64,000 nt of DNA, taken from Flaccisagitta enflata. Its lineage: Eukaryota. The stretch lies in contig OZ231126.1 of NCBI GenBank assembly GCA_965153355.1, positions 14,446,001 to 14,510,000 of the forward strand, given 5' to 3'. The position numbers and the translations under genes are program-made. Shown here in pieces: positions 3,664 through 50,423 of the stretch (position 1 is its first letter; each line of letters starts with the position of its first letter). A model generated the notes under the pieces. That model searched no databases. It worked only from the letters and a program-made list of their open reading frames with translations, and had not been told where the DNA came from.

Positions 3664-4185
3664 TTTGGCGCTGTTTATGCGAAGAAAGAAGCTCAAGCTT
3701 AAAGAGCACTCAGAACACAATGCAGAACCAAGACTAACGTCAAACTTGCATGTTATGTCTGACGTTAAGCATGTATTTGTTTACTTACCCCTATTTCGCT
3801 GTGTCAGTGGCCTGAGATGATTAATGTCGAGTTACCTAGCCGTCGTCTTCACGGCAAAGAAAAAAAACCTACAAAAAAAGAAATCGGAACTGTCGAGTTT
3901 GTCATGAAGGGACTACTCGAGTATTGTACTCAAAGATTGTATCGCAATGTTTTTCCATGGTCGGAGTAATGAAATATGAATGATCAGTGATCAGTCACAT
4001 GGGAATGGATCGCCTTTGTATCAAAAACTAGAAAGGCAGAAATTCGACCTGAAGATGCGTCCTTTACCACTGCGTTGTGCTGGATGACTGCAAGTCGAAT
4101 TTCAAAAGAGACAAACTTGTTAACTTCGTTATCGATTTTCACGGTGACTCCATTCCACCCCCCCCTACTTCCTCTCATCCAGGCC

Positions 4186-7100
4186 ATGTTTCCTCGCATT
4201 CTCGGTCGAATCGTCCGTCCGCTGCGAGGTCGAGCGGAAGCCGCTTCTGTTTTCACCTCCACTTGCAACTCCAGCCACCCGTCTCGTCGTGATAGATCCC
4301 AACGTTTGCATCTGGACCGTCGGACATTTTCGACTCAACCTTCGTCTTCATTTTCCCCAACGGCGTCGTCGACGTCAACCACCGCCGCCACTTCCGGCAA
4401 CGAGGAATGCGATTCGCTGTTTGGTTTCAACGTCGCCGACGACGCCTCCACCCCTTCGCATCATGGAGAGAATGCGTCGACGAGAAAATCCGGAACTGGG
4501 ATGTCGTGGTGGAATTGCGCGCCGCGAGACGAGGAGGAAGCTATGCGATTGGAGCACGAACTTATCTCTTACTTTCAAACTAGCATCTTCAACGGCGATA
4601 TCGAGCACGCGGAAAAAGTGCTGCGGAGACAAGACAAAGAATTTGTCACCGCGGACATGTTTCACATTTTCTTGAGGACTTATATCAAACGTGGACTATG
4701 GAACGAGTTTGTCGAGTTATTGCGCCACATGGAATCGCAAAACGTATCGGTTGACATCACCGTTTATGCCTTAACTCTCGCTGCTTATGGACAATTGATG
4801 GAATCGAATTCTTCTGCCTCTGCGACACGAACTTTCCTCCACGATTCCGCGTCGTCGATGAGCTCTTCGTTAAACCTTTCTGCGATGGACGTCTTACATC
4901 GTCGCGCGTTGCTGGTCGAGGAGAAGCGTCTCATCAACGTCGCCGCTTCGATGCTTTGTCAGGACTCTCTCAACATCAATGGAGATCTGTCGTGTCAACT
5001 GGCTCGATCATTAGACTACGATTGCCCCATCGTCGATCATCTCAATGAGAAAAACGCCACGTACCCTAATCCCAATTACAGTGCGTTTGACTTGACAGAA
5101 ATGAAGTCTAAATTGGAAGAAATCTGGAGACTAGAAACACACGGACAAGTGTTTGCCGACCGAGTTGATAATTTACGCGAGGTTGACGGCGATGATTCTT
5201 CTTTAACCAATCAACGACTTCGATCGTCGACTCTTCTCAGTCTCCATCGCGAAATCTGGCGAAAATCGATCTCTGAGGCGTTAGATTGCCATTTGTCCGT
5301 TCTTAAAAAGAAACGTTTCGACGAAAACATCGTCTCTCTCCATCCTTATTTGAATTTGTTCACCGCGGAAGAGATGACCGATTTTCTCGTTAGTGAGATC
5401 GATCAAATAGTTTTGTGGACTCATCAGATGGCGTTTCCTAATCACGTCCTGGCCGCAAGAATCGGAAGAATCTTCGCCATTCGCGCCGCCGCCAAACAAC
5501 ACGCGCTTTTTGGCGACTTTGAGACATTTGAGAAAATTTATTCGCGGTATTTGGAGTTTCACGCCGCTGAGACGCGACAGGTTTGGATGACAGGATGATT
5601 TTGAAAGCCTGATCTAGCGTTTTCCAATGGTGGAAATAAGATGGGAGGGGAGCAATTATTGGGCTAAGGGATTTTGAAAGAAACGAAAAAAAAAAGAAAG
5701 TGCTAGAAATAACGACAGGTGATATCATGAAAGGACAGAGAAAAAGAGATAAAGGCCAAGTGAAGTGAAAAGAATGAAAGGGAAAAGGGGAAATAGCGAA
5801 ACGAAACAAATATAACAGAAGTGATCCAACTGTCCAACACCCTCTCTGGTCACTTTCCTTTCATCTTTCAGTTTCCAACGGAGCGTCATTTTTGGAACGC
5901 CATGCGGGAGGAGTTTCCTTTCCTCGCGGACATGGACGTTACGCTACGTTATTGGCCACAATCCGTACGTCTGGAATTCGGTCATTTGCTCTTTCACGTT
6001 GTCGTCGGGGAGGCGCTGTTCAATCCACGCCTGCTTGAAATAAACAAAAACATTGAAAAAGACGACGAAGACAACGAATTCAAGCCCGTCTTTATGATTC
6101 TCACAAAAAAGGTCAAAGCTCATCCGAAAGTGTTTCAATTGTACGACGCCGTGTCTATTCCGCAATCGCATCCTTCGACAGAGCTGCCGACGAGATTACC
6201 ACCGATGCCTTGGGTCGACGCGACCGTCAACGGTAGCGTACTCAGCGATACGGCCGTCATTCGATTCGACCGCGATGACAAGTACTCGCACGAGACGCTG
6301 TCGACGATTCGCACGAACCGATTGTTTCCCCCGCTGGATGCGCTCAATCATCTCGGCTCGAGTCCATGGACCGTTAATGAATTCGTTCTTGACGTTGCCT
6401 CGGAGGTAACCACTAACAACAAAATCACAAAATGAAGACTTCTTTTGGAGAAACCAACTTTGGAGAGCTAACACTGTCGCTCATCTCTCTCTATCTTATT
6501 TTTGATTTCTTTCTCTCTCTTATTTTCTCAGGTTTTCAATTCTGGTGGTTGTCCAGAGTTGAAAATTCCATTCACTCGCGACGTGGAAGAAAGCCGCACT
6601 TCTGGCCATTTGACTCAGTCGACTGTTACGGACAACAAGAACTGGTTTTCCGCGTTGAATAACTTATCAATCGCGCGACGAATGCGAAATCAAGTCTTTT
6701 GGCTTCCCCATCAAATGGATTACCGTGGCCGATGCACACCGACTCCGGCTTTTCTCACGCATCATGGACCCGACTTGACTCGTGGTTTGATCACGTTTGC
6801 CAATAAGAAGCCCGTCGGAGAAAAAGGTGAGGCTCGCTCGGCTGTTGGGGCTTAGGAGCTGGTCCATATGACGATTGACAATCTAAGGTTACATATCTCA
6901 CTTCTCAATACAATAACTGGTCCAGGAAATCCACTTGTCCGTTCATTTGATTGTTAATTCATTAGTTTTTCTTACCAGTTTATAAACAAATGCTCATTAA
7001 AATACGATTGTTTATCAGTTCATCGTTAAATCTCTTTACCAGTTGATCTAACTGCCAGTTATTATCTCACCGAATCAGCTGCATTTCATTTTATCATTGT

Positions 7101-9552
7101 ACCACTTCAGTTAATTGACTTATTTATTTGTGCATTTTGCCATTTTTGGGCAGCGGCCCCGAAGGGGACGAAGTCCTGTAGAACACAGGGGGACATTCGT
7201 TCGTTCGTTCGTCCGTTCGTGCGTCCCCCCCCTTATCAGGCCCCTCAGGCCTAAAATCTAGCCTCTCAGGCCTCAAATTCAGCCTCTCAGGCCTCTAATC
7301 CAGCCTCTCAGGCCTCTAATCCAGCCTCTCAGGCCTCAAATCCAGCCTCTCAGGCCTCAAATCCAGCCTCTCAGGCCTCAAATCCAGCCTCTCAGGCCTC
7401 AAATCCGGCCTCTCAGGCCTCAAATCCGACCTAGCAGGCCTCAAACCTGGCCTTTCAGACCTCAAACTAGGCCTCACAGGCCTCAAATCGAAATTCCCAT
7501 GCCTCAAACCTCTCCTCGCATGCCTCAAATAAGGCCTCAAATAAGTCCTCTCAAGCTTCCAATTGGCATTCTCATGCCTTCATAGACCTCAATTTAAGCT
7601 CTTGAAGGCCTTCAGTCAACCCTCTATGTAGCATCTCATCCGGGTAAGGCAGGACAAACGAAAGTCCCCCTGTGTTCTACAGGACTTTGTCCCCTTCGGG
7701 GCCGCTGCCCTGCTTCCCCTCACTTCAACTCACAATCACTCAAAGCAGGGCTAAGGGTATCGCTGACCATATATTGCCCTTGGGCGACCTGTTAGTTTTA
7801 GAAGTTTTTGAATCTCTCATTCATTCATTCATTCTGTTGTGATCGCTATTAAGGTCTCGATTGGTTGAAGATTCACGCCATCAACGTCGCGGGGTTGAAA
7901 AAGCAATCGTCCCTGTCCGGACGGATCGAATACGCCGACGAGATCATGGACGATATTCTCGACTCGGCTCATCGGCCGTTGGACGGCGCAGGATGGTGGA
8001 AACGAGGAGACAAACCGTGGGAGACTCTAGCCGCTTGCAAAGAGATCGCCGACGCGTTGGCGACGCCCAATTCTCAATCCTTCAAAAGCAGTCTACCAAT
8101 TCATCAAGACGGATCGTGCAACAGGTTAGAGTCCCCTCAACGCGCTGTCGTTGATGGTTTTCCATGGTCAGCTTTCCATTACATTTCACTATAAACTCCT
8201 AGTTTTCCGTAAAACTGAATCTGAAAATATTCCTTCTCAATCTAACCCAAAAGCAAACTGCTTATCTAAGGAAGTTAGCGCAATGATTGTTACCTTCATT
8301 ACCAAACGAGTTCTAAGTTCTGCTTCATATTGCGTTTTCATCATCCAGTTTACAACACTTTTCCGCCTTGGCACGGGACCAATTAGCCGGGGAATTAGTC
8401 AATCTTTGCCCGTCTGAGAGACCCAAAGATCCATATTGGGACATCGTTCGACTTCTCGAGAAAAAGAGGAAAAACGACGCCGCCCGCGGACGTCGCGAAG
8501 CTCTTATTCTCGAGGGATTCTTAGACCGGAAGATCGTGAAACGGATCGTGATGAGGGTCGGGTACGGCGCCAGTCGCAGCAGCGCCATTGGCTACGTCGA
8601 ACAATGGCTACAAGACATCGACGGCTTCCCCCGAAAACACGTTAGAAAATGTTCTCGGTATTTGGGCGTTGGGATTCTAGAATGCAACGATCATCTATTT
8701 CAGTCTACGGCGAAATTAAAGAGGTGAGGCAATCTCGAGGACAGAATCATCCAATGTAAGGTGGGTGAACTTGAGATTGATACAGGTGTCTTACCCTCAG
8801 CGTGGCCTGGCTTACCGGCTTACATTTATTTACTGGCTTTCCCAATCACGATCTATACCAGGTGGCTAACACAAATAGCAGACATCGTAACGGCCGAAAA
8901 TGGTTCCATTGTATTTTGGGAGTCGCCCTTGGGTAAGTTGATAAGCTGAGCTTGATAAATTTTTGATGTCAACTGATTAGTTTTAGATGCAAACCTACCC
9001 TGGACTGTTTAGTGTTTAGGAGATGTTTTGTTGACGTGGAAAGAAAAGCACATTGGCCTTCAGACACTGCACTAATGATGAAAACATGAAAGCTATGGGT
9101 GATACGCTCAGCAATCGGTGATGGTTCACGAGGCTCACCTCTGTATCATGCAATTATGATTATCTGTAACTAGAAATATTGTTCCGCTTGTCATTTGGAT
9201 TTCAATTTCAGGCCTTCCCGTTCATCAACCTCCGGTACCTCACATCTTCGTTCCCAACTTTATTCATTCGTTGGACGCTAGTCACATGATGCTCACCGCT
9301 CTCCACGCTCACCGCAGCGGCGTCACATTTTGCGCCGTGCACGACTGTTTCTGGACTCACGCCGGCACCGTCGAACAGATGAATGACATCTGCCGTCGTC
9401 AATTTCTCAGACTTCATAGTAGTGGTTTGTTGGAAAATCTCAGCGAGCAATGCTCGAAATTGGCCGTGATCGAGGATCGAGTTCCTCCCATTCCACCGCG
9501 TGGGACACTCGATATTGAAAGAATCACCGAAAGTTTATACTTTTTCCAGTGA
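4186..9552 (+). CDS. POLRMT: Mitochondrial single-subunit (T7-like) RNA polymerase, divergent; ~1093 aa; exons 4186-5580, 5872-6405, 6532-6826, 7854-8124, 8349-8723, 8862-8932, 9212-9552
   Basis: Arg-rich presequence, PPR-like repeats, FWLPHQMDYRGR, GLDWLKIH, KPWETLAAC, HQDGSCN (motif A), RKIVKRIVMRVGYG (motif B), PNFIHSLDASHMML, AVHDCFWTHA (motif C) and C-terminal SLYFFQ; all introns are GT-AG and the frame is preserved (3282 nt). Confidence 0.95.
7143..7793 (+). mobile_element. Helentron/DINE-like element, family C, with ~47-bp internal inverted repeat and 21-bp minisatellite
   Basis: GGGCAGCGGCCCCGAAGGGGACGAAGTCCTGTAGAACACAGGGGGAC is inverted at ~7663-7710; (CCTCTCAGGCCTCAAATCCAG)n core; 3' TTGCCCTTGGGCGACCTGTT; copies at 38480-38983 (-) and 52277-52582 (+). 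Confidence 0.75.
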
Positions 9553-9875
9553 TCGTGTTGGTTGCTTTTATTTGATGAAATCCAACGTCTTCATTGAAGC
9601 AGCATAAACTCAAGAATAAGACTCATGGGTGTTCTTCTACACTTTGTGTACTTTATTCAAGTAAATTGACTCGAAACTGTGATTGTCATTGAACCCTTGT
9701 TAACAATAGCAAACTGTTGGGCCAACAGTGTTGGCTGTCTTATTTATTCTATCTTTGTTGGTCATGCGATGGTTTTCTATCCCTCGCCATTTGTTTTATC
9801 CTTTAGAGCCAGTGATGGTTTTAACGAAGCGAGCAACAATCACCATACAAATCAGTCAAATTTAATTTGACAATC

Positions 9876-19658
<9,783 letters not shown>

Positions 19659-20271: not shown

Positions 20272-23200
20272 ATGGAGGCCAAACGGAAGGCGGACGAGAT
20301 GGCGTTGGTAGCTGTGGCCACGAAAAAGGCACGAACCGAAGCCGGGGCTCTGATGGAGGCCGTTCCCGGTGTCACGAGGACGTCAAATCTCGCGGTGAGG
20401 AATTAACATGAATAAGGGCTATAAACAGTTACGATTTATTCATGGGTGTATGGGGAGGGATGTCAGGGACGTCGGCCGACGTTCCTTTTTGTCGGACGTG
20501 CACCCCTGTCAGATTTAAGCTCATGTTAAAAAAGAAGGCCAAAAATAAAAAAAATGAAAGAAAAAGAAAACGGGAGAAGAAATGCATATTCAGGGGAAGA
20601 ATGAGAGAATATATGTGGTTTTCTAACAAATTAGGCTGTAGTTTCTTGCAGGAGAGTGTAATTTAAGATTTGAAAAGAATGAATAGGTAATAAAACCTGT
20701 CGGGCTTGAGGCTCTATCGGTTTTGAAACTGATTAACTGACAGCCCTTTGAGATTCCGCGCCATACACTTATGCCGGATTTATGACCTCTGTTGTCTTCA
20801 CTTCCATAATAAAGTTATCTCACTTAAACATATTCATCTGTGCAGGCTCCCATCATGTTGTTGATGGGCCACGAAGGAGACATTTTCTGCACCAAATTTC
20901 ACCCGGACGGCGAAATTTTGGTCTCTGGCGGCTTTGATCGAACCATTCTCGTTTGGAACGTTTACGGCGAATGTGAGAATATCGCCAAATTGACGGGACA
21001 TCACGGCGCCATCATGGACCTTCACTGGAGCAACGACGGCGATTATCTTTACACAGCTTCTACCGACAAAACGCTCGGCATCTGGGACGCTGAATACGGC
21101 GTCAAAATTAAGAAGATGAAAGGTGAATTTAAGTGGGAAGTTTCTTCAATAAGTCACTTAATCTATGTCATGTCAGTCAGTTTATATATAGATCTGTCAA
21201 TTTATCTTTCTTTAGTTTAATCTACTTGTCAGTTTATCCATCTGTCAGTCTGTCAGTTTATCAGTCTGTCAGTCTGTCAGTTTATCTAACTGTCAGTTCA
21301 TCTACCTGTCAGTTTATCTATCTGTCAGTCCGTCAGTTTATCTATGTCATTCTGTCAGTTTATCTACCTGTCAGTCTGTCAGTTTATCTATCTGTCAGTT
21401 TGTCTATCTCTTAGTCTGTTAGTTTATCTTTCTGTCATTTTATCTATCTGTCAGTTAATCTATCTGTCAGTCTTGTCAGTTTATCTTTCACTCTGTCAGT
21501 TTATCCATCCCTCTGCCAGTTTATCCATATGTCACTCTGTCAGTTTATCCATCTTTCAGACTCAGTTTATCCCTCTGTCAGTTTATCTATCAGTTTGTCT
21601 ATCTGTCAGTGACTCAGTTTGTCTATCTGTCAGTTTATCTATCTGGTTAAACGCACAACGTTGCACTTTTAACTTGTTTATATTGTCCCTTTTAGGTCAT
21701 CAATCATTCGTCAACTCCTGTCACGTGGCGCGAAGGGGTCCACAGCTCGTCTGCTCGGGCTCTGACGACGGCACCGTCATGGTTTGGGACTATCGCAAAA
21801 AATCTCCAGTGCACACTTTTCAAAATACGTATCAAGTCACCTCCGTCAGTTTCAGCGACACGGCTGAGCAAGTGTTCTCGGGAGGAATTGACAACGACGT
21901 AAAGGTTGGTCTGCTTTCACGTCCCAAGCCCCATCGTATCGTGGTAGGCCTTTACTTCCAAGAGTTAGTATTGTTGTTTCCGGCGTTTTGGTCGTCAATG
22001 TCGTTGTTGTTGACGCGTTGTCAGTCGTTTTCAGTGTTGTCGTCAGTGTTGTTGTTGTCGTCAGTGTTGTTGTTGTCGTCAGTGTTGTTGTTGTCGTCAG
22101 TGTTGTCGTCAGTGTTGTTGTCATGAGTTGTTGTCGTCAGTTGTTGGTGATGTTGTGGTTGTTGTCGTCAGTGTTGTTGTCGTCAGTGTTGTTGTCATGA
22201 GTTGTTGTCGTCAGTTGTTGGTGATGTTGTGGTTGTTGTCGTCAGTTGTTGTTAATGTTGTTGTCGTCAGTTGTTGTTGTTGTTGTCGACAGTTGTTGTT
22301 GTCGTCAGTTTTGTTGTTGTTGTCGTCAGTTTTCTTGTTGTTGTCGTCCGTTTTGTTGTTGTTGTCGTCAGTGTTGTCAGTGTTGTTGTTAGTGTTGTTG
22401 TTGTCAGTGTTGATGTTGTCAGTGATGATGTTGTCAGTGATGATGTTGTCAGTGTTGATGTTGTCAGTGTTGATGTTGTCAGTGTTGATGTTGTCAGTGT
22501 TGATGTTGTCATTGTTGATGTTGTCAGTGTTGATGTTGTCAGTGTTGATGTTGTCAGTGTTGATGTTGTCAGTGTTGATGTTGTCAGTGTTGATGTTGTC
22601 AGTGTTGATGTTGTCAGTGTTGATGTTGTCAGTGTTGATGTTGTCAGTGTTGATGTTGTCAGTGTCGATGTTGTCAGTGTCGATGTTGTCAGTGTCGATG
22701 TTGTCAGTGTCGATGTTGTCAGTGTCGATGTTGTCAGTGTCAGTGTCGATGTTGTCGGTGTCGATGTTGTCGGTGTCGATGTTTTCAGTGTCGATGATGT
22801 CAGTGTCATTGTTGTCAGTGTCGATGTTGTCAGTGTCGATGTTTTCAGTGTCGATGTTTTCAGTGTCGATGATGTCAGTGTCGTTGTTGTCAGTGTCGAT
22901 GTTGTCAGTGTCGATGTTGTCAGTGTCGATGATGTCAGTGTCGATGATGTCAGTGTCGATGATGTCAGTGTCGATGATGTCAGTGTCGATGATGTCAGTG
23001 TCGATGTTGTCAGTGTCGATGTTGTCAGTGTCGATGTTGTCAGTGTCGATGTTGTCAGTGTCGATGTTGTCAGTGTCCATGTTGTCAGTGTCGATGTTGT
23101 CAGTGTCCATGTTGTCAGTGTCCATGTTGTCAGTGTCGATGTTGTCAGTGTCGATGTTGTCAGTGTCGATGTTGTCAGTGTCGATGTTGTCAGTGTCGAT

Positions 23201-25225: not shown

Positions 25226-27671
25226 ATGGAAAACTTAGCCGATGTGATGAGTTTTGGAAGTGGTGGTGAAAGTGATTTGGCCGACGTGGCAATTTCCGCG
25301 AAGACGCTCGAGACCAGGAAAGAGGTTCTTCGACTGGAGAAACGAATCGGTAATAAGCTTGATAGGCGATAGCGATATGTATTATTCGAACAATGATTGG
25401 CTGGATATAGGCCATCAGTGATCAGAAGCAATACAAACAAGGGCCGATACACGACCTCAAATCGCGGACGGTTGAGCAGGGGCAGTAACGGAAAAGGACT
25501 CGATTATTATCGCGACCAACCGTCTGACCTAGCAGCGTATAGATTTTCGTGCCCGCGCCCAAAAATGAATAGACAATGTCTTTCCACTACCCTAGGATAT
25601 CGACGTGTGTGCATCAACACCGAAGTTGACACAATTTGGACTCCCAGCGCCAGCAAGAAAAAGAAGAAACTGAAAGAGGACGATCGTGACTCACCTCAAC
25701 CGCCCTCCTGCCCAGTCCCCACTCCTTCCAAATCGCTCATAAATCTCCAAGAAGGTGTTGCGTTGCTTGCTCTGATTTTGGGTCTTACATTATCTCTTAC
25801 TTTTCTGACGATGTGATCATGTGACGTTGTAAGAATTTCATTGATGATGATGAACTCGCCAACCTGCAAAACAATCAATCAATCAATAAATGAATAATTA
25901 TTATTGCTCCAAGTCAAATTCATGTTCCCCCCAACCAGATGGCTGTCGGTTGTACTCTCGGTTGACATTTCCGTTGACGGATCCCATTCAGCTGAGCAAA
26001 ATGGTGGTGCCCGAAGTTCTCGCTTACGACGTGATCGCCGTGGAACCGGCCAACGATAAACTCTTTCATAAAGTCTGCACCGAATCCGAACACATCGATC
26101 TCATCACTTTCAATTATTCGGCCGGCAATGCACCTGATTTCAAACTTCAGCCCGGCGTCGTAAAGGTTGGTAGTATTTGGTTCATGTCTTCCGTATTTTA
26201 ACACCGAATGAATTTTACTCCGTCTCATATCCCTGATTGATACCTCCAGAATTCAGATGTGCTACGTCTAACAATTTTTTCTCGTTTTCATGAAGGTGGC
26301 GCAAGATCGTGGCATACACTTTGAAATTGTCGTTGGTCCAGGTCTTCGATCCTCTGAGAGTGCCAAGCGCGGTCTTATTTCCTACGCTCGAAAAATCGTC
26401 ACTGCGACCAAAGGTGAGTGATAATTTTAAGCCACGTCGGATCGAGGTCGGGTGAGGCGTAAGCTGGCCCGAGCGTGAAACCGGAAGTTCATTCCGGTTG
26501 CGGAAAAAGGGCAGGGTCGCCCTAAAACGATAATGGGCTGCTTGGCCGTGACGGTAACGGTATTGATAAGAAGAAGAGGAAGAAGAAAAGAAAAAAATAA
26601 GAAGAGAAGAAAAAAAATAGAAGAAAAGAAAAAAAAACGATAAAAAGAAAAAAAAAGAAGAAAAGAAAAAAAAAGAAGAAAAAAAGAAAAAAAAAGAAGA
26701 AATAAAAGAAGGGAAATAAAAGAGGGAAAAGAAGTAAATGCTCTCCCTCTCTCTCTCTCTCTGCCCCTGCCCCTGCTTTTATCTCCTTGACTGTCTGTCT
26801 GTCTCCATATCAGTCTGGCAAGTGATATGTCTAGCGTATTTTTGTAGTTATAACCACCGATGAGTAAATACAGATACTTATGACCGTACCGTACCGTACC
26901 GTCCCCGACACGATATTTCAATAAATTGCATAGTTACGCCCCGTGGCGGAAAATGGCGTTGTTGCAACGTCCACGGAATAGAGGTTTACCGCAGTGTCAC
27001 GCTCGGCCCAGGGCGTAAGTTCCATTGTTTTTCGTATTATTCCTTACCAATCGCCCCTTTTTCAGGCAAAAAGATCGTTCTCTCCAATGGAGCCATGAGG
27101 CCTTCGGAAGTTCGCGGTCCTTTCGATTTGATGAATCTCGGGGTGTTGTTCGGCATGAACCAAAGTCAAGCCAAAGATGCTGTCTCTAAGTAAGTGGAAA
27201 GTTTTGATTATTAGTCATTGACATTTTATTCTACTTGGTCACTTTGATGGAGACTGTGCCTAGTATGAAATTTAGTCTGTTTGTTATGTAAAGTTCCTGA
27301 TATAAACTTCTAAGTTTTCCTCTCGTGATTACAGAAACTTCGACGCTATTTTGCGGCACAGCTTGACGCGGAAAAGCGGCGGAGGCGTGGTGACTTTCGC
27401 CAGGGAAGGGAATTTGAGTAAAAATACGAAAGACAAATTGGCGCATCTCAAGAATCTCAAAGATGTGATCACGTCAGAAGTGGAAAAGCGTAATCAGGAA
27501 GCGCAAAGACCAGTGAAGAATGGGCATGTGACTTCCGTTGTTGAAATTCCTAACGACAAAACATCTAATTGTGAAGCGTCCACTGGTACCACCAGTGACA
27601 AGAGGAGAGCATGTGACGCAGTTGACGGCTGCGATGTAAAAAAACCTCGCCTTCTTGACACCGCCGTTTGA
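25226..27671 (+). CDS. RPP30: RNase P/MRP protein subunit p30; ~362 aa; exons 25226-25349, 25596-25754, 25939-26165, 26296-26413, 27066-27189, 27335-27671
   Basis: IGYRRVCIN, LYSRLTF, YDVIAVEPANDKLFHKVC, DRGIHFEI, KGKKIVLSNGA..PSEVRGPFDLMNLGVLFGM; frame preserved (1089 nt). Confidence 0.92.
25436..25565 (-). mobile_element. Degenerate family A Helentron/DINE-like element in RPP30 intron 1
   Basis: AACAAGGGCCGATACACGACC..CGCGGACGGTTGAGCAGGGGCAGTAA is the reverse complement of the family A 3' end. Confidence 0.55.
26464..27011. mobile_element. Non-autonomous DNA transposon with 15-bp TIRs and an 8-bp TSD
   Basis: GGCGTAAG|CTGGCCCGAGCGTGA ... TCACGCTCGGCCCAG|GGCGTAAG. Confidence 0.8.

Positions 27672-46330: not shown

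Positions 46331-50423
<4,093 letters not shown>

Follow-up and report, generated by a model that had tools for sequence, protein, structure and literature searches.

A mitochondrial RNA polymerase gene of Flaccisagitta enflata that appears to be trimmed of promoter-melting and promoter-reading elements

We examined a stretch of 64,000 nucleotides from the genome of Flaccisagitta enflata (assembly GCA_965153355.1, contig OZ231126.1, positions 14,446,001 to 14,510,000 of the forward strand), which is referred to below as the window and whose positions are counted from its first nucleotide. It contains a gene for mitochondrial RNA polymerase (POLRMT) that encodes a T7-like single-subunit RNA polymerase with the catalytic core kept. 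Comparison with homologous proteins indicates that the tip of the intercalating hairpin, the linker and basic helix of the thumb, and the whole specificity loop have been lost by in-frame deletions inside exons. The gene itself is not decaying, as judged by its open frame, its catalytic motifs, spliced transcript contigs and an excess of synonymous variants. We favour, with a probability of roughly 0.55, the interpretation that the gene is a genuine POLRMT that is expressed and maintained by selection, and that its product is a core enzyme that leaves the melting and recognition of promoters to other factors or to easily opened DNA. The elements in question are located as follows.

6019..6084, + strand: equivalent of the lever loop (B2/TFB2M-binding loop), extended by 5-6 residues relative to the usual length and containing an acidic run
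6085..6123, + strand: putatively shortened intercalating hairpin (human equivalent 604-624), with 13 residues from P to H
6568..6645, + strand: reduced thumb, 26 residues compared with about 43, lacking both the proline-rich linker and the ascending basic helix
9226..9255, + strand: position at which the specificity loop is missing, with 10 residues (QPPVPHIFVP) compared with about 40 in homologues

In human and yeast mitochondria the three reduced elements are described as holding the upstream edge of the bubble, where the hairpin is inserted as a wedge between -5 and -4 and prevents the bubble from closing (PMC11642874), as reading bases -7 to -3, which is the task of the specificity loop (PMC11642874), and as anchoring one end of TFB2M/Mtf1, the tip of the yeast thumb binding the N-terminal domain of Mtf1 as one of two Mtf1 anchors (PMC10600007). 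The thumb is also described as helping to hold scrunched strands. When the tip of the human specificity loop (residues 1087-1099) was deleted, scaffold activity was reported to stay and promoter-driven transcription to be gone (PMC4402542). Accounts of initiation call the hairpin, specificity loop and thumb conserved and essential in every studied single-subunit RNA polymerase (PMC7939475, PMC11642874, PMC10600007), and a literature search that left most subscription journals outside its range found no report of a mitochondrial polymerase without these elements.

The window gene encodes a POLRMT with a conserved catalytic core

The POLRMT gene comprises seven exons at 4186-9552 on the + strand, with 1093 codons and one terminal stop, and GT-AG borders are found at all six introns. 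The exons are as follows.

Exon 1, 4186..5580, + strand: ATG at 4186, arginine-rich N-terminus, weak PPR-like repeats, start of the N-terminal polymerase domain
Exon 2, 5872..6405, + strand: N-terminal domain with lever loop and intercalating hairpin; both borders shown by joints in RNA contigs
Exon 3, 6532..6826, + strand: thumb remnant and DxxGR motif; acceptor shown by an RNA joint
Exon 4, 7854..8124, + strand: palm up to motif A (HQDGSCN); Pfam RNA_pol
Exon 5, 8349..8723, + strand: fingers, motif B (R..K....YG); Pfam RNA_pol
Exon 6, 8862..8932, + strand: GT-AG borders; the joined frame yields the conserved W-x-S-P-L-G
Exon 7, 9212..9552, + strand: remaining palm with motif C (VHDCFW), followed by the C-terminus and the stop codon

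When exons were searched one by one against the Protein Data Bank with HMMER, human mitochondrial RNA polymerase was the top match for exons 2, 3 and 7, yeast Rpo41 was the second best for the same exons, and T7 RNA polymerase came next for exons 3 and 7 only. Residues 27-176 of exon 2 correspond to human POLRMT 566-717 (E 3.3e-8, in the numbering of the 1230-residue chain), residues 39-96 of exon 3 to 777-834 (E 3.7e-14) and residues 12-111 of exon 7 to 1119-1229 (E 1.6e-29). The Pfam family RNA_pol (PF00940) matches exon 4 (E 1.8e-33, profile positions 8-95), exon 5 (E 2.3e-26, profile positions 97-218) and exon 7 (E 8.4e-38), while profile positions ~219 to 299 are uncovered by the window exons. 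RPOL_N (PF14700) passes marginally on exon 2, with 30.2 bits and a cut-off of 30.1, and there is a precomputed PF14700 match for P0001, a metagenome copy of the window protein. Under the motif names customary in this family, motif A (HQDGSCN), motif B (RKIVKRIVMRVGYG), motif C (VHDCFW) and the DxxGR motif (MDYRGR) all align with those of homologues, and the catalytic residues seen in the alignment include the Asp of motif A, the R/K/Y/G of motif B, the HD of motif C and DYRGR. The lever loop typical of mitochondrial, as opposed to phage, members is also present. In exon 1, which has no Pfam match, the PPR-like signal is weak, consisting of matches of residues 125-217 to a plant PPR protein (E 0.0017) and, more faintly, to the PPR region of human POLRMT (residues 225-309, E 0.04-0.056).

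The hairpin, thumb and specificity loop are reduced relative to homologues

An exhaustive HMMER search with exon 2 returned 125 proteins at E <= 0.001. The first match was a 177-residue fragment from metagenome assemblies with 99% identity and the next best was just 30% identical; only the window protein's own cluster exceeded 35% identity, and word-indexed protein searches with exons 2 and 3 found its own fragment P0001 alone. Homologues that could be named by cluster look-up come from wasps, ants, a damselfly, mites, a spider, a centipede, a mantis shrimp, an amphipod and an isopod, and further from octopus, a bivalve, a gastropod, Trichinella and a bird. For the main set of lengths, the spliced protein was aligned with 39 homologues of at least 1000 residues, 36 of which were measured between conserved anchors (P0122, which was not alignable, and the partial sequences P0040 and P0072 were left out). 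The hairpin was also measured in a wider set of 117 aligned sequences that span the segment, fragments included, and a profile hidden Markov model (HMM) built without the window protein was used to place the deletions. The first-pass annotation of this DNA, made from the sequence without database searches, had proposed that both hairpin and thumb are shortened, and across the 36 homologues the lengths in the window protein proved to lie outside the range that is normal for invertebrates; named arthropods and molluscs, a nematode and a bird all have segments of normal length.

Between the P of the P-[AV]-F motif and the H of K-x-H-P, both included, the hairpin has 13 residues, compared with a median of 21 (minimum 17, maximum 28) in the 36 full-length homologues, a count that bears out the few residues noticed between PVF and K-HP, subject to a caveat on the alignment that is weighed below. 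The value of 17 belongs to an isopod. In the wider set the lower quartile, median and upper quartile are 21, 21 and 22, and hairpins of 14 residues or fewer are confined to copies of the window protein (P0001, P0126 and P0127) and to the truncated fragments P0088 and P0083. The same short hairpin occurs in independent metagenome-derived proteins at 99% identity. Homologues follow the pattern P-A-F-Y, about 13 residues, E-V-K-P-H-P, whereas the window protein reads P-V-F-M-I-L-T-K-K-V-K-A-H-P, within the string FKPVFMILTKKVKAHP that is present as quoted in the first-pass annotation at about 6079-6126. The human segment given there agrees with the human POLRMT chain in the HMMER output. The human lever loop has been assigned to residues 588-604 and the hairpin to 605-624 (PMC4402542, PMC11642874), and the window protein has about 12 residues in place of these 20.

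The profile HMM deletes 7 match states at the hairpin and inserts 5 residues in the preceding loop, with posterior values of 3-4 there, and relative to homologues the window protein has INKNIE inserted at residues 522-527 of the lever loop. An AlphaFold2 model of exon 2, built from 52 homologues, predicts, at pLDDT above 90, two 4-residue strands (exon-2 residues 74-77 and 80-83) with a turn of two residues between them; the conserved helix comes next, and the acidic stretch of the lever loop is rendered as coil (pLDDT about 75). In a Foldseek search this isolated model gave human POLRMT chains as its best matches at E 0.086, with none at E <= 0.001. A model of a single exon does not lend itself to global comparison, and we relied on its local secondary structure alone. 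A short hairpin is thus supported jointly by the conserved P-V-F motif, the alignment to the profile and the predicted structure, and a short hairpin behind a long lever loop is very probably the right reading of this segment. The alternative, a hairpin of normal length with an unrecognisable acidic first strand, would likewise be without a canonical wedge.

The thumb segment, which we delimited by the P of L-x-I-P and the W of S-L-W, has 26 residues, compared with a median of 43 in the 36 homologues; the minimum is 27, in a Strigamia model, and the next-lowest value is 37. The Strigamia model lacks the linker and keeps the basic helix, and genuinely shorter thumbs of 34-35 residues in a mite and an unnamed sequence keep theirs as well. 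Homologues have the layout F-N-S-G-G-x-x-x-L-x-I-P, a proline-rich linker, a K/R-rich helix to E-M-Y-S-L-W and a return helix. In the window protein the net charge of the thumb is -1, compared with a median of +3, and its last 20 residues contain two K/R, compared with a median of five, in agreement with the earlier suggestion of a short exon 3 linker that lacks the basic helix; exon 3 spans VFNSGGCPELKIP to ...LSIARRMRNQVFWLPH, as had been quoted. Human residues 718-776 amount to 59, for which the window protein has 40. The profile HMM deletes 17 match states here, and AlphaFold2 predicts, at moderate confidence (mean pLDDT 70.6), a single helix at exon-3 residues 28-50 that is preceded by coil at 13-27. 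The shortening of the thumb is a net difference in length and is independent of the placement of gaps, and the deletion lies within exon 3 because the anchor on its N-side opens the exon directly after a confirmed junction.

A third difference is at the specificity loop, where 10 residues separate the Q-P and P-N-F anchors, both within exon 7, compared with a median of 40 in the 36 homologues. The profile HMM match splits at this point, skipping 35 match states with 5 residues in their place. Past residue 330, deletions of at least three well-occupied columns comprise those at the hairpin (-8), thumb (-6 and -13), specificity loop (-24) and C-terminal loop (-15), with no others, and the sole insertion is that in the lever loop. 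The deletions in the hairpin, thumb and specificity loop are each in frame and lie between conserved motifs of one exon, on protrusions that contact the promoter or the hybrid, which accords with the coordinated in-frame trimming of several initiation and processivity elements that had been proposed.

The variable C-terminal loop, after residue 1063 at about 9455-9470 in the window, falls ~15 columns short of its length in most homologues. Seemingly short hairpins or thumbs in P0083, P0088, P0074, P0067 and P0004 were rejected, since these fragments are truncated or wrongly predicted and either begin at unrelated sequence or continue into it.

The window protein is divergent as a whole. In a FastTree phylogeny of 37 sequences it has the longest terminal branch (2.06, with a median of 0.92) and lies near the base of the tree, a placement that is not reliable on so long a branch, and it keeps 107 of 134 near-invariant columns, compared with a homologue median of 98%. 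A scan of metagenomes gave 185 pattern matches, two of which were confirmed; both are unspliced T7-like polymerases with 28-29% identity to the window protein and are probably phage-like, not relatives. They lie on two 18-kb contigs (L001:3004-5243 and L002:2995-3726), also have a short thumb region and have the motif P-W-T-V-N-E-F-V in common with the window protein. The polymerase of these contigs is probably a phage or plasmid enzyme.

The gene is transcribed and spliced and appears to be under purifying selection

Sequence of the window region is present in marine metagenomes and metatranscriptomes of several studies, as well as in the runs of one named organism. We placed contigs and reads of four sequencing runs on window positions 3900-7100. 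One metatranscriptome contig skips intron 1 (5581-5871, 291 nt) and another skips intron 2 (6406-6531, 126 nt), in both cases with a GT..AG joint; at the junction of exons 3 and 4, RNA contigs from two runs break at 6828 and then run into the first bases of exon 4. None of the DNA contigs placed on 3900-7100 contains the exon joints. RNA contigs span the shortened hairpin without gaps, and no indel was listed within exons 2 or 3 in DNA and RNA contigs of other samples.

At the 5′ end, one metatranscriptome contig matches the gene from 4183 on and is preceded there by 35 unrelated letters, which were not found elsewhere in the window at up to three mismatches. The genome has AG after a pyrimidine tract at 4181-4182, three bases 5′ of the ATG at 4186. 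These 35 letters may stem from a trans-spliced leader, from a 5′ exon farther away or from a chimeric contig.

Of the 67 differences between the window and the contigs, which derive from mixed natural populations, 40 were listed and 27 were not; among those listed, 30 are coding, comprising 17 synonymous and 13 non-synonymous variants over 510 and 1713 sites, respectively, which gives a pN/pS of about 0.23. In exons 2-3 the listed variants are 6 synonymous and 2 non-synonymous. Eleven of the 13 listed non-synonymous variants cluster in exon 1 at 4628-5116 (residues 148-311), which suggests a much weaker constraint on the PPR-like and linker part than on exons 2-3. The suggestion that the trimming does not reflect random decay is therefore supported by the open frame, the GT-AG borders, the spliced contigs, the kept motifs and the pN/pS value, and functional specialisation of the trimmed polymerase is plausible.

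Comparison with known polymerases suggests how transcription might start

Human POLRMT (PDB 9mn4, 6erp and 4boc) and animal orthologues resemble the window protein in having an N-terminal domain with lever loop, thumb, palm and fingers in the same order, behind what in the window protein is a putative PPR-like region, and motifs A, B, C and DxxGR of the human enzyme are all kept. In contrast to the human protein, the window protein has 13 instead of 21 residues in the hairpin and 40 instead of 59 in the thumb, lacks the specificity loop (human 1085-1108), has an acidic lever loop that is 5-6 residues longer and differs at 27 of the 134 near-invariant columns. Yeast Rpo41 (PDB 6ymv and others) is likewise a T7-like mitochondrial polymerase, with matches to exons 2, 3 and 7, and is described as relying on Mtf1, which the Mtf1 hairpin, equivalent to the lever loop, and the tip of the thumb keep in place (PMC10600007). 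Rpo41 has a full hairpin, thumb and specificity loop, whereas the window protein keeps the lever-loop anchor alone. Engineered deletions in human POLRMT (613-617 and 1087-1099) remove the same elements but are smaller and laboratory-made, whereas the window deletions are larger, natural and in a gene under selection.

RNAPII of phage N4 (gp15/gp16) offers a further point of reference. It is described as a minimal T7-like enzyme with a truncated thumb and N-terminal, promoter-recognition domain that binds only single-stranded DNA, without specificity, and needs gp2 to load it at AT-rich promoters (PMC4496689). Unlike the window gene, which is a single spliced nuclear gene for one polypeptide, N4 RNAPII is a two-subunit phage enzyme without a PPR region and is not an orthologue; the likeness is a working analogy drawn from the published description. 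N4 RNAPII nevertheless shows that a minimal T7-like enzyme can work, and by analogy the window protein may initiate in a comparable way.

We infer that the window enzyme would still polymerise RNA but would have lost its own ability to wedge a promoter open or to read it, so that other proteins would be needed for initiation. As the lever loop is kept and enlarged, a TFB2M-like factor may still dock there. Alternatively, initiation might take place on DNA that is already open, whether AT-rich, supercoiled or single-stranded, as in phage N4 RNAPII. The stub of the thumb would be expected to weaken the hold on the RNA-DNA hybrid and to lower processivity, unless an elongation factor compensates.

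Weighing the interpretation

Several observations count against a maintained core enzyme of this kind. The distance from the G-x-L-L helix to K-x-H-P, which covers the lever loop and hairpin together, is normal at 48 residues (median 50) because the upstream lever loop is 5-6 residues longer, and the shortening of the hairpin therefore depends on the alignment; the pairwise HMMER alignment of exon 2 to the human protein is almost gap-free, the posterior values of the profile are low at this point, and the alignment given to AlphaFold2 had the same gap, so that the model is not fully independent. RNA evidence covers introns 1-2 and the exon 3-4 junction, with none for exons 4-7, and polyA RNA reads of the named organism, from ~6% of the run, gave 0 on the gene, a sample too thin to weigh. 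The unlisted variants and mixed source populations behind the pN/pS value count on the same side. HMMER, word-based and metagenome searches found no relative above ~30% identity. Activity, processivity and dependence on factors are read here from the protein sequence. Finally, the protein is very divergent overall and surface protrusions are the parts most easily lost, so that relaxed constraint, instead of a new mode of action, is possible.

A more specific version of a core enzyme, which we advance only tentatively, is that the trimmed protein is the lineage's only mitochondrial polymerase, and that transcription starts through a factor bound to the enlarged acidic lever loop, or on open or single-stranded DNA, ends or R-loops.

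Relaxed constraint would lead to a different account, in which the protrusions were lost neutrally in a fast-evolving lineage, being already dispensable through other components or through a very AT-rich or otherwise unusual mitochondrial genome; nothing new would have been gained, and the enzyme would function in the ordinary manner at reduced performance. The general acceleration seen in the changed near-invariant columns and the long terminal branch agrees with such passive erosion, as do the deletion of the variable C-terminal loop and the length variation elsewhere (the isopod hairpin of 17 residues and the thumbs of 34-35 in the mite and the unnamed sequence). However, the region is still constrained, as its longer lever loop and the purifying selection seen in exons 2-3 show. 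We regard erosion as unlikely, and it differs from a maintained core enzyme mainly in emphasis.

Somewhat less probable still is a specialised paralogue, with a second, canonical POLRMT transcribing the mitochondrial genome and the trimmed copy confined to a narrower job, such as making short primers on single-stranded DNA for replication. The lost elements would be precisely those that are described as dispensable on single-stranded or pre-melted templates (PMC4402542, PMC4496689), and the longest terminal branch in the tree is what would be expected after a duplication and change of function. Against this, the exhaustive search with exon 2, in which only the protein's own cluster rose above 35% identity, revealed no second copy among the proteins searched. 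Animals as a rule carry one POLRMT gene, which also speaks against a paralogue.

A non-functional gene or an artefact (a pseudogene, wrong gene model, assembly error or misalignment), to which the bare passing score of RPOL_N, the lack of a Pfam match in exon 1 and the failure of the exon-2 model to reach E 0.001 in Foldseek might point, is largely refuted by an open frame over 1093 codons with canonical splice sites, by spliced RNA contigs that confirm the junctions adjoining the deletions in exons 2-3, by the position of all three deletions between conserved motifs inside single exons with no indel there in contigs of other samples, and by the excess of synonymous variants, and we consider it highly improbable.

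Genomic neighbourhood

Intron 3 of the polymerase gene contains, at 7148-7710, a MITE-like element whose 57-nt terminal inverted repeats, 95% complementary, flank at least about 13 copies of a 21-bp tandem repeat. A KLHL-type gene with BTB and Kelch domains begins right after the polymerase stop codon, and the neighbouring frames (9825-19655, 20828-21217, 25890-26198 and 46334-49387) encode BTB and Kelch domains, RNase P p30, WD40 repeats and, in an open frame of 1018 codons on the minus strand, C-type lectin domains, a set that marks the source as an animal. Long (CT)n and (GT)n runs are frequent in the window, and Rfam gave no match across its whole 64 kb.

Implications for mitochondrial transcription

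If the window gene does encode a maintained core enzyme, transcription in this lineage probably starts in an unusual way, and an undescribed route of mitochondrial initiation would await description. The gene would then amount to a natural experiment on how little a polymerase needs for mitochondrial transcription, in which a naturally selected animal enzyme without most of the three elements would reveal which parts of the polymerase are truly indispensable, and the trimmed protein would provide a ready-made minimal scaffold for biochemistry.

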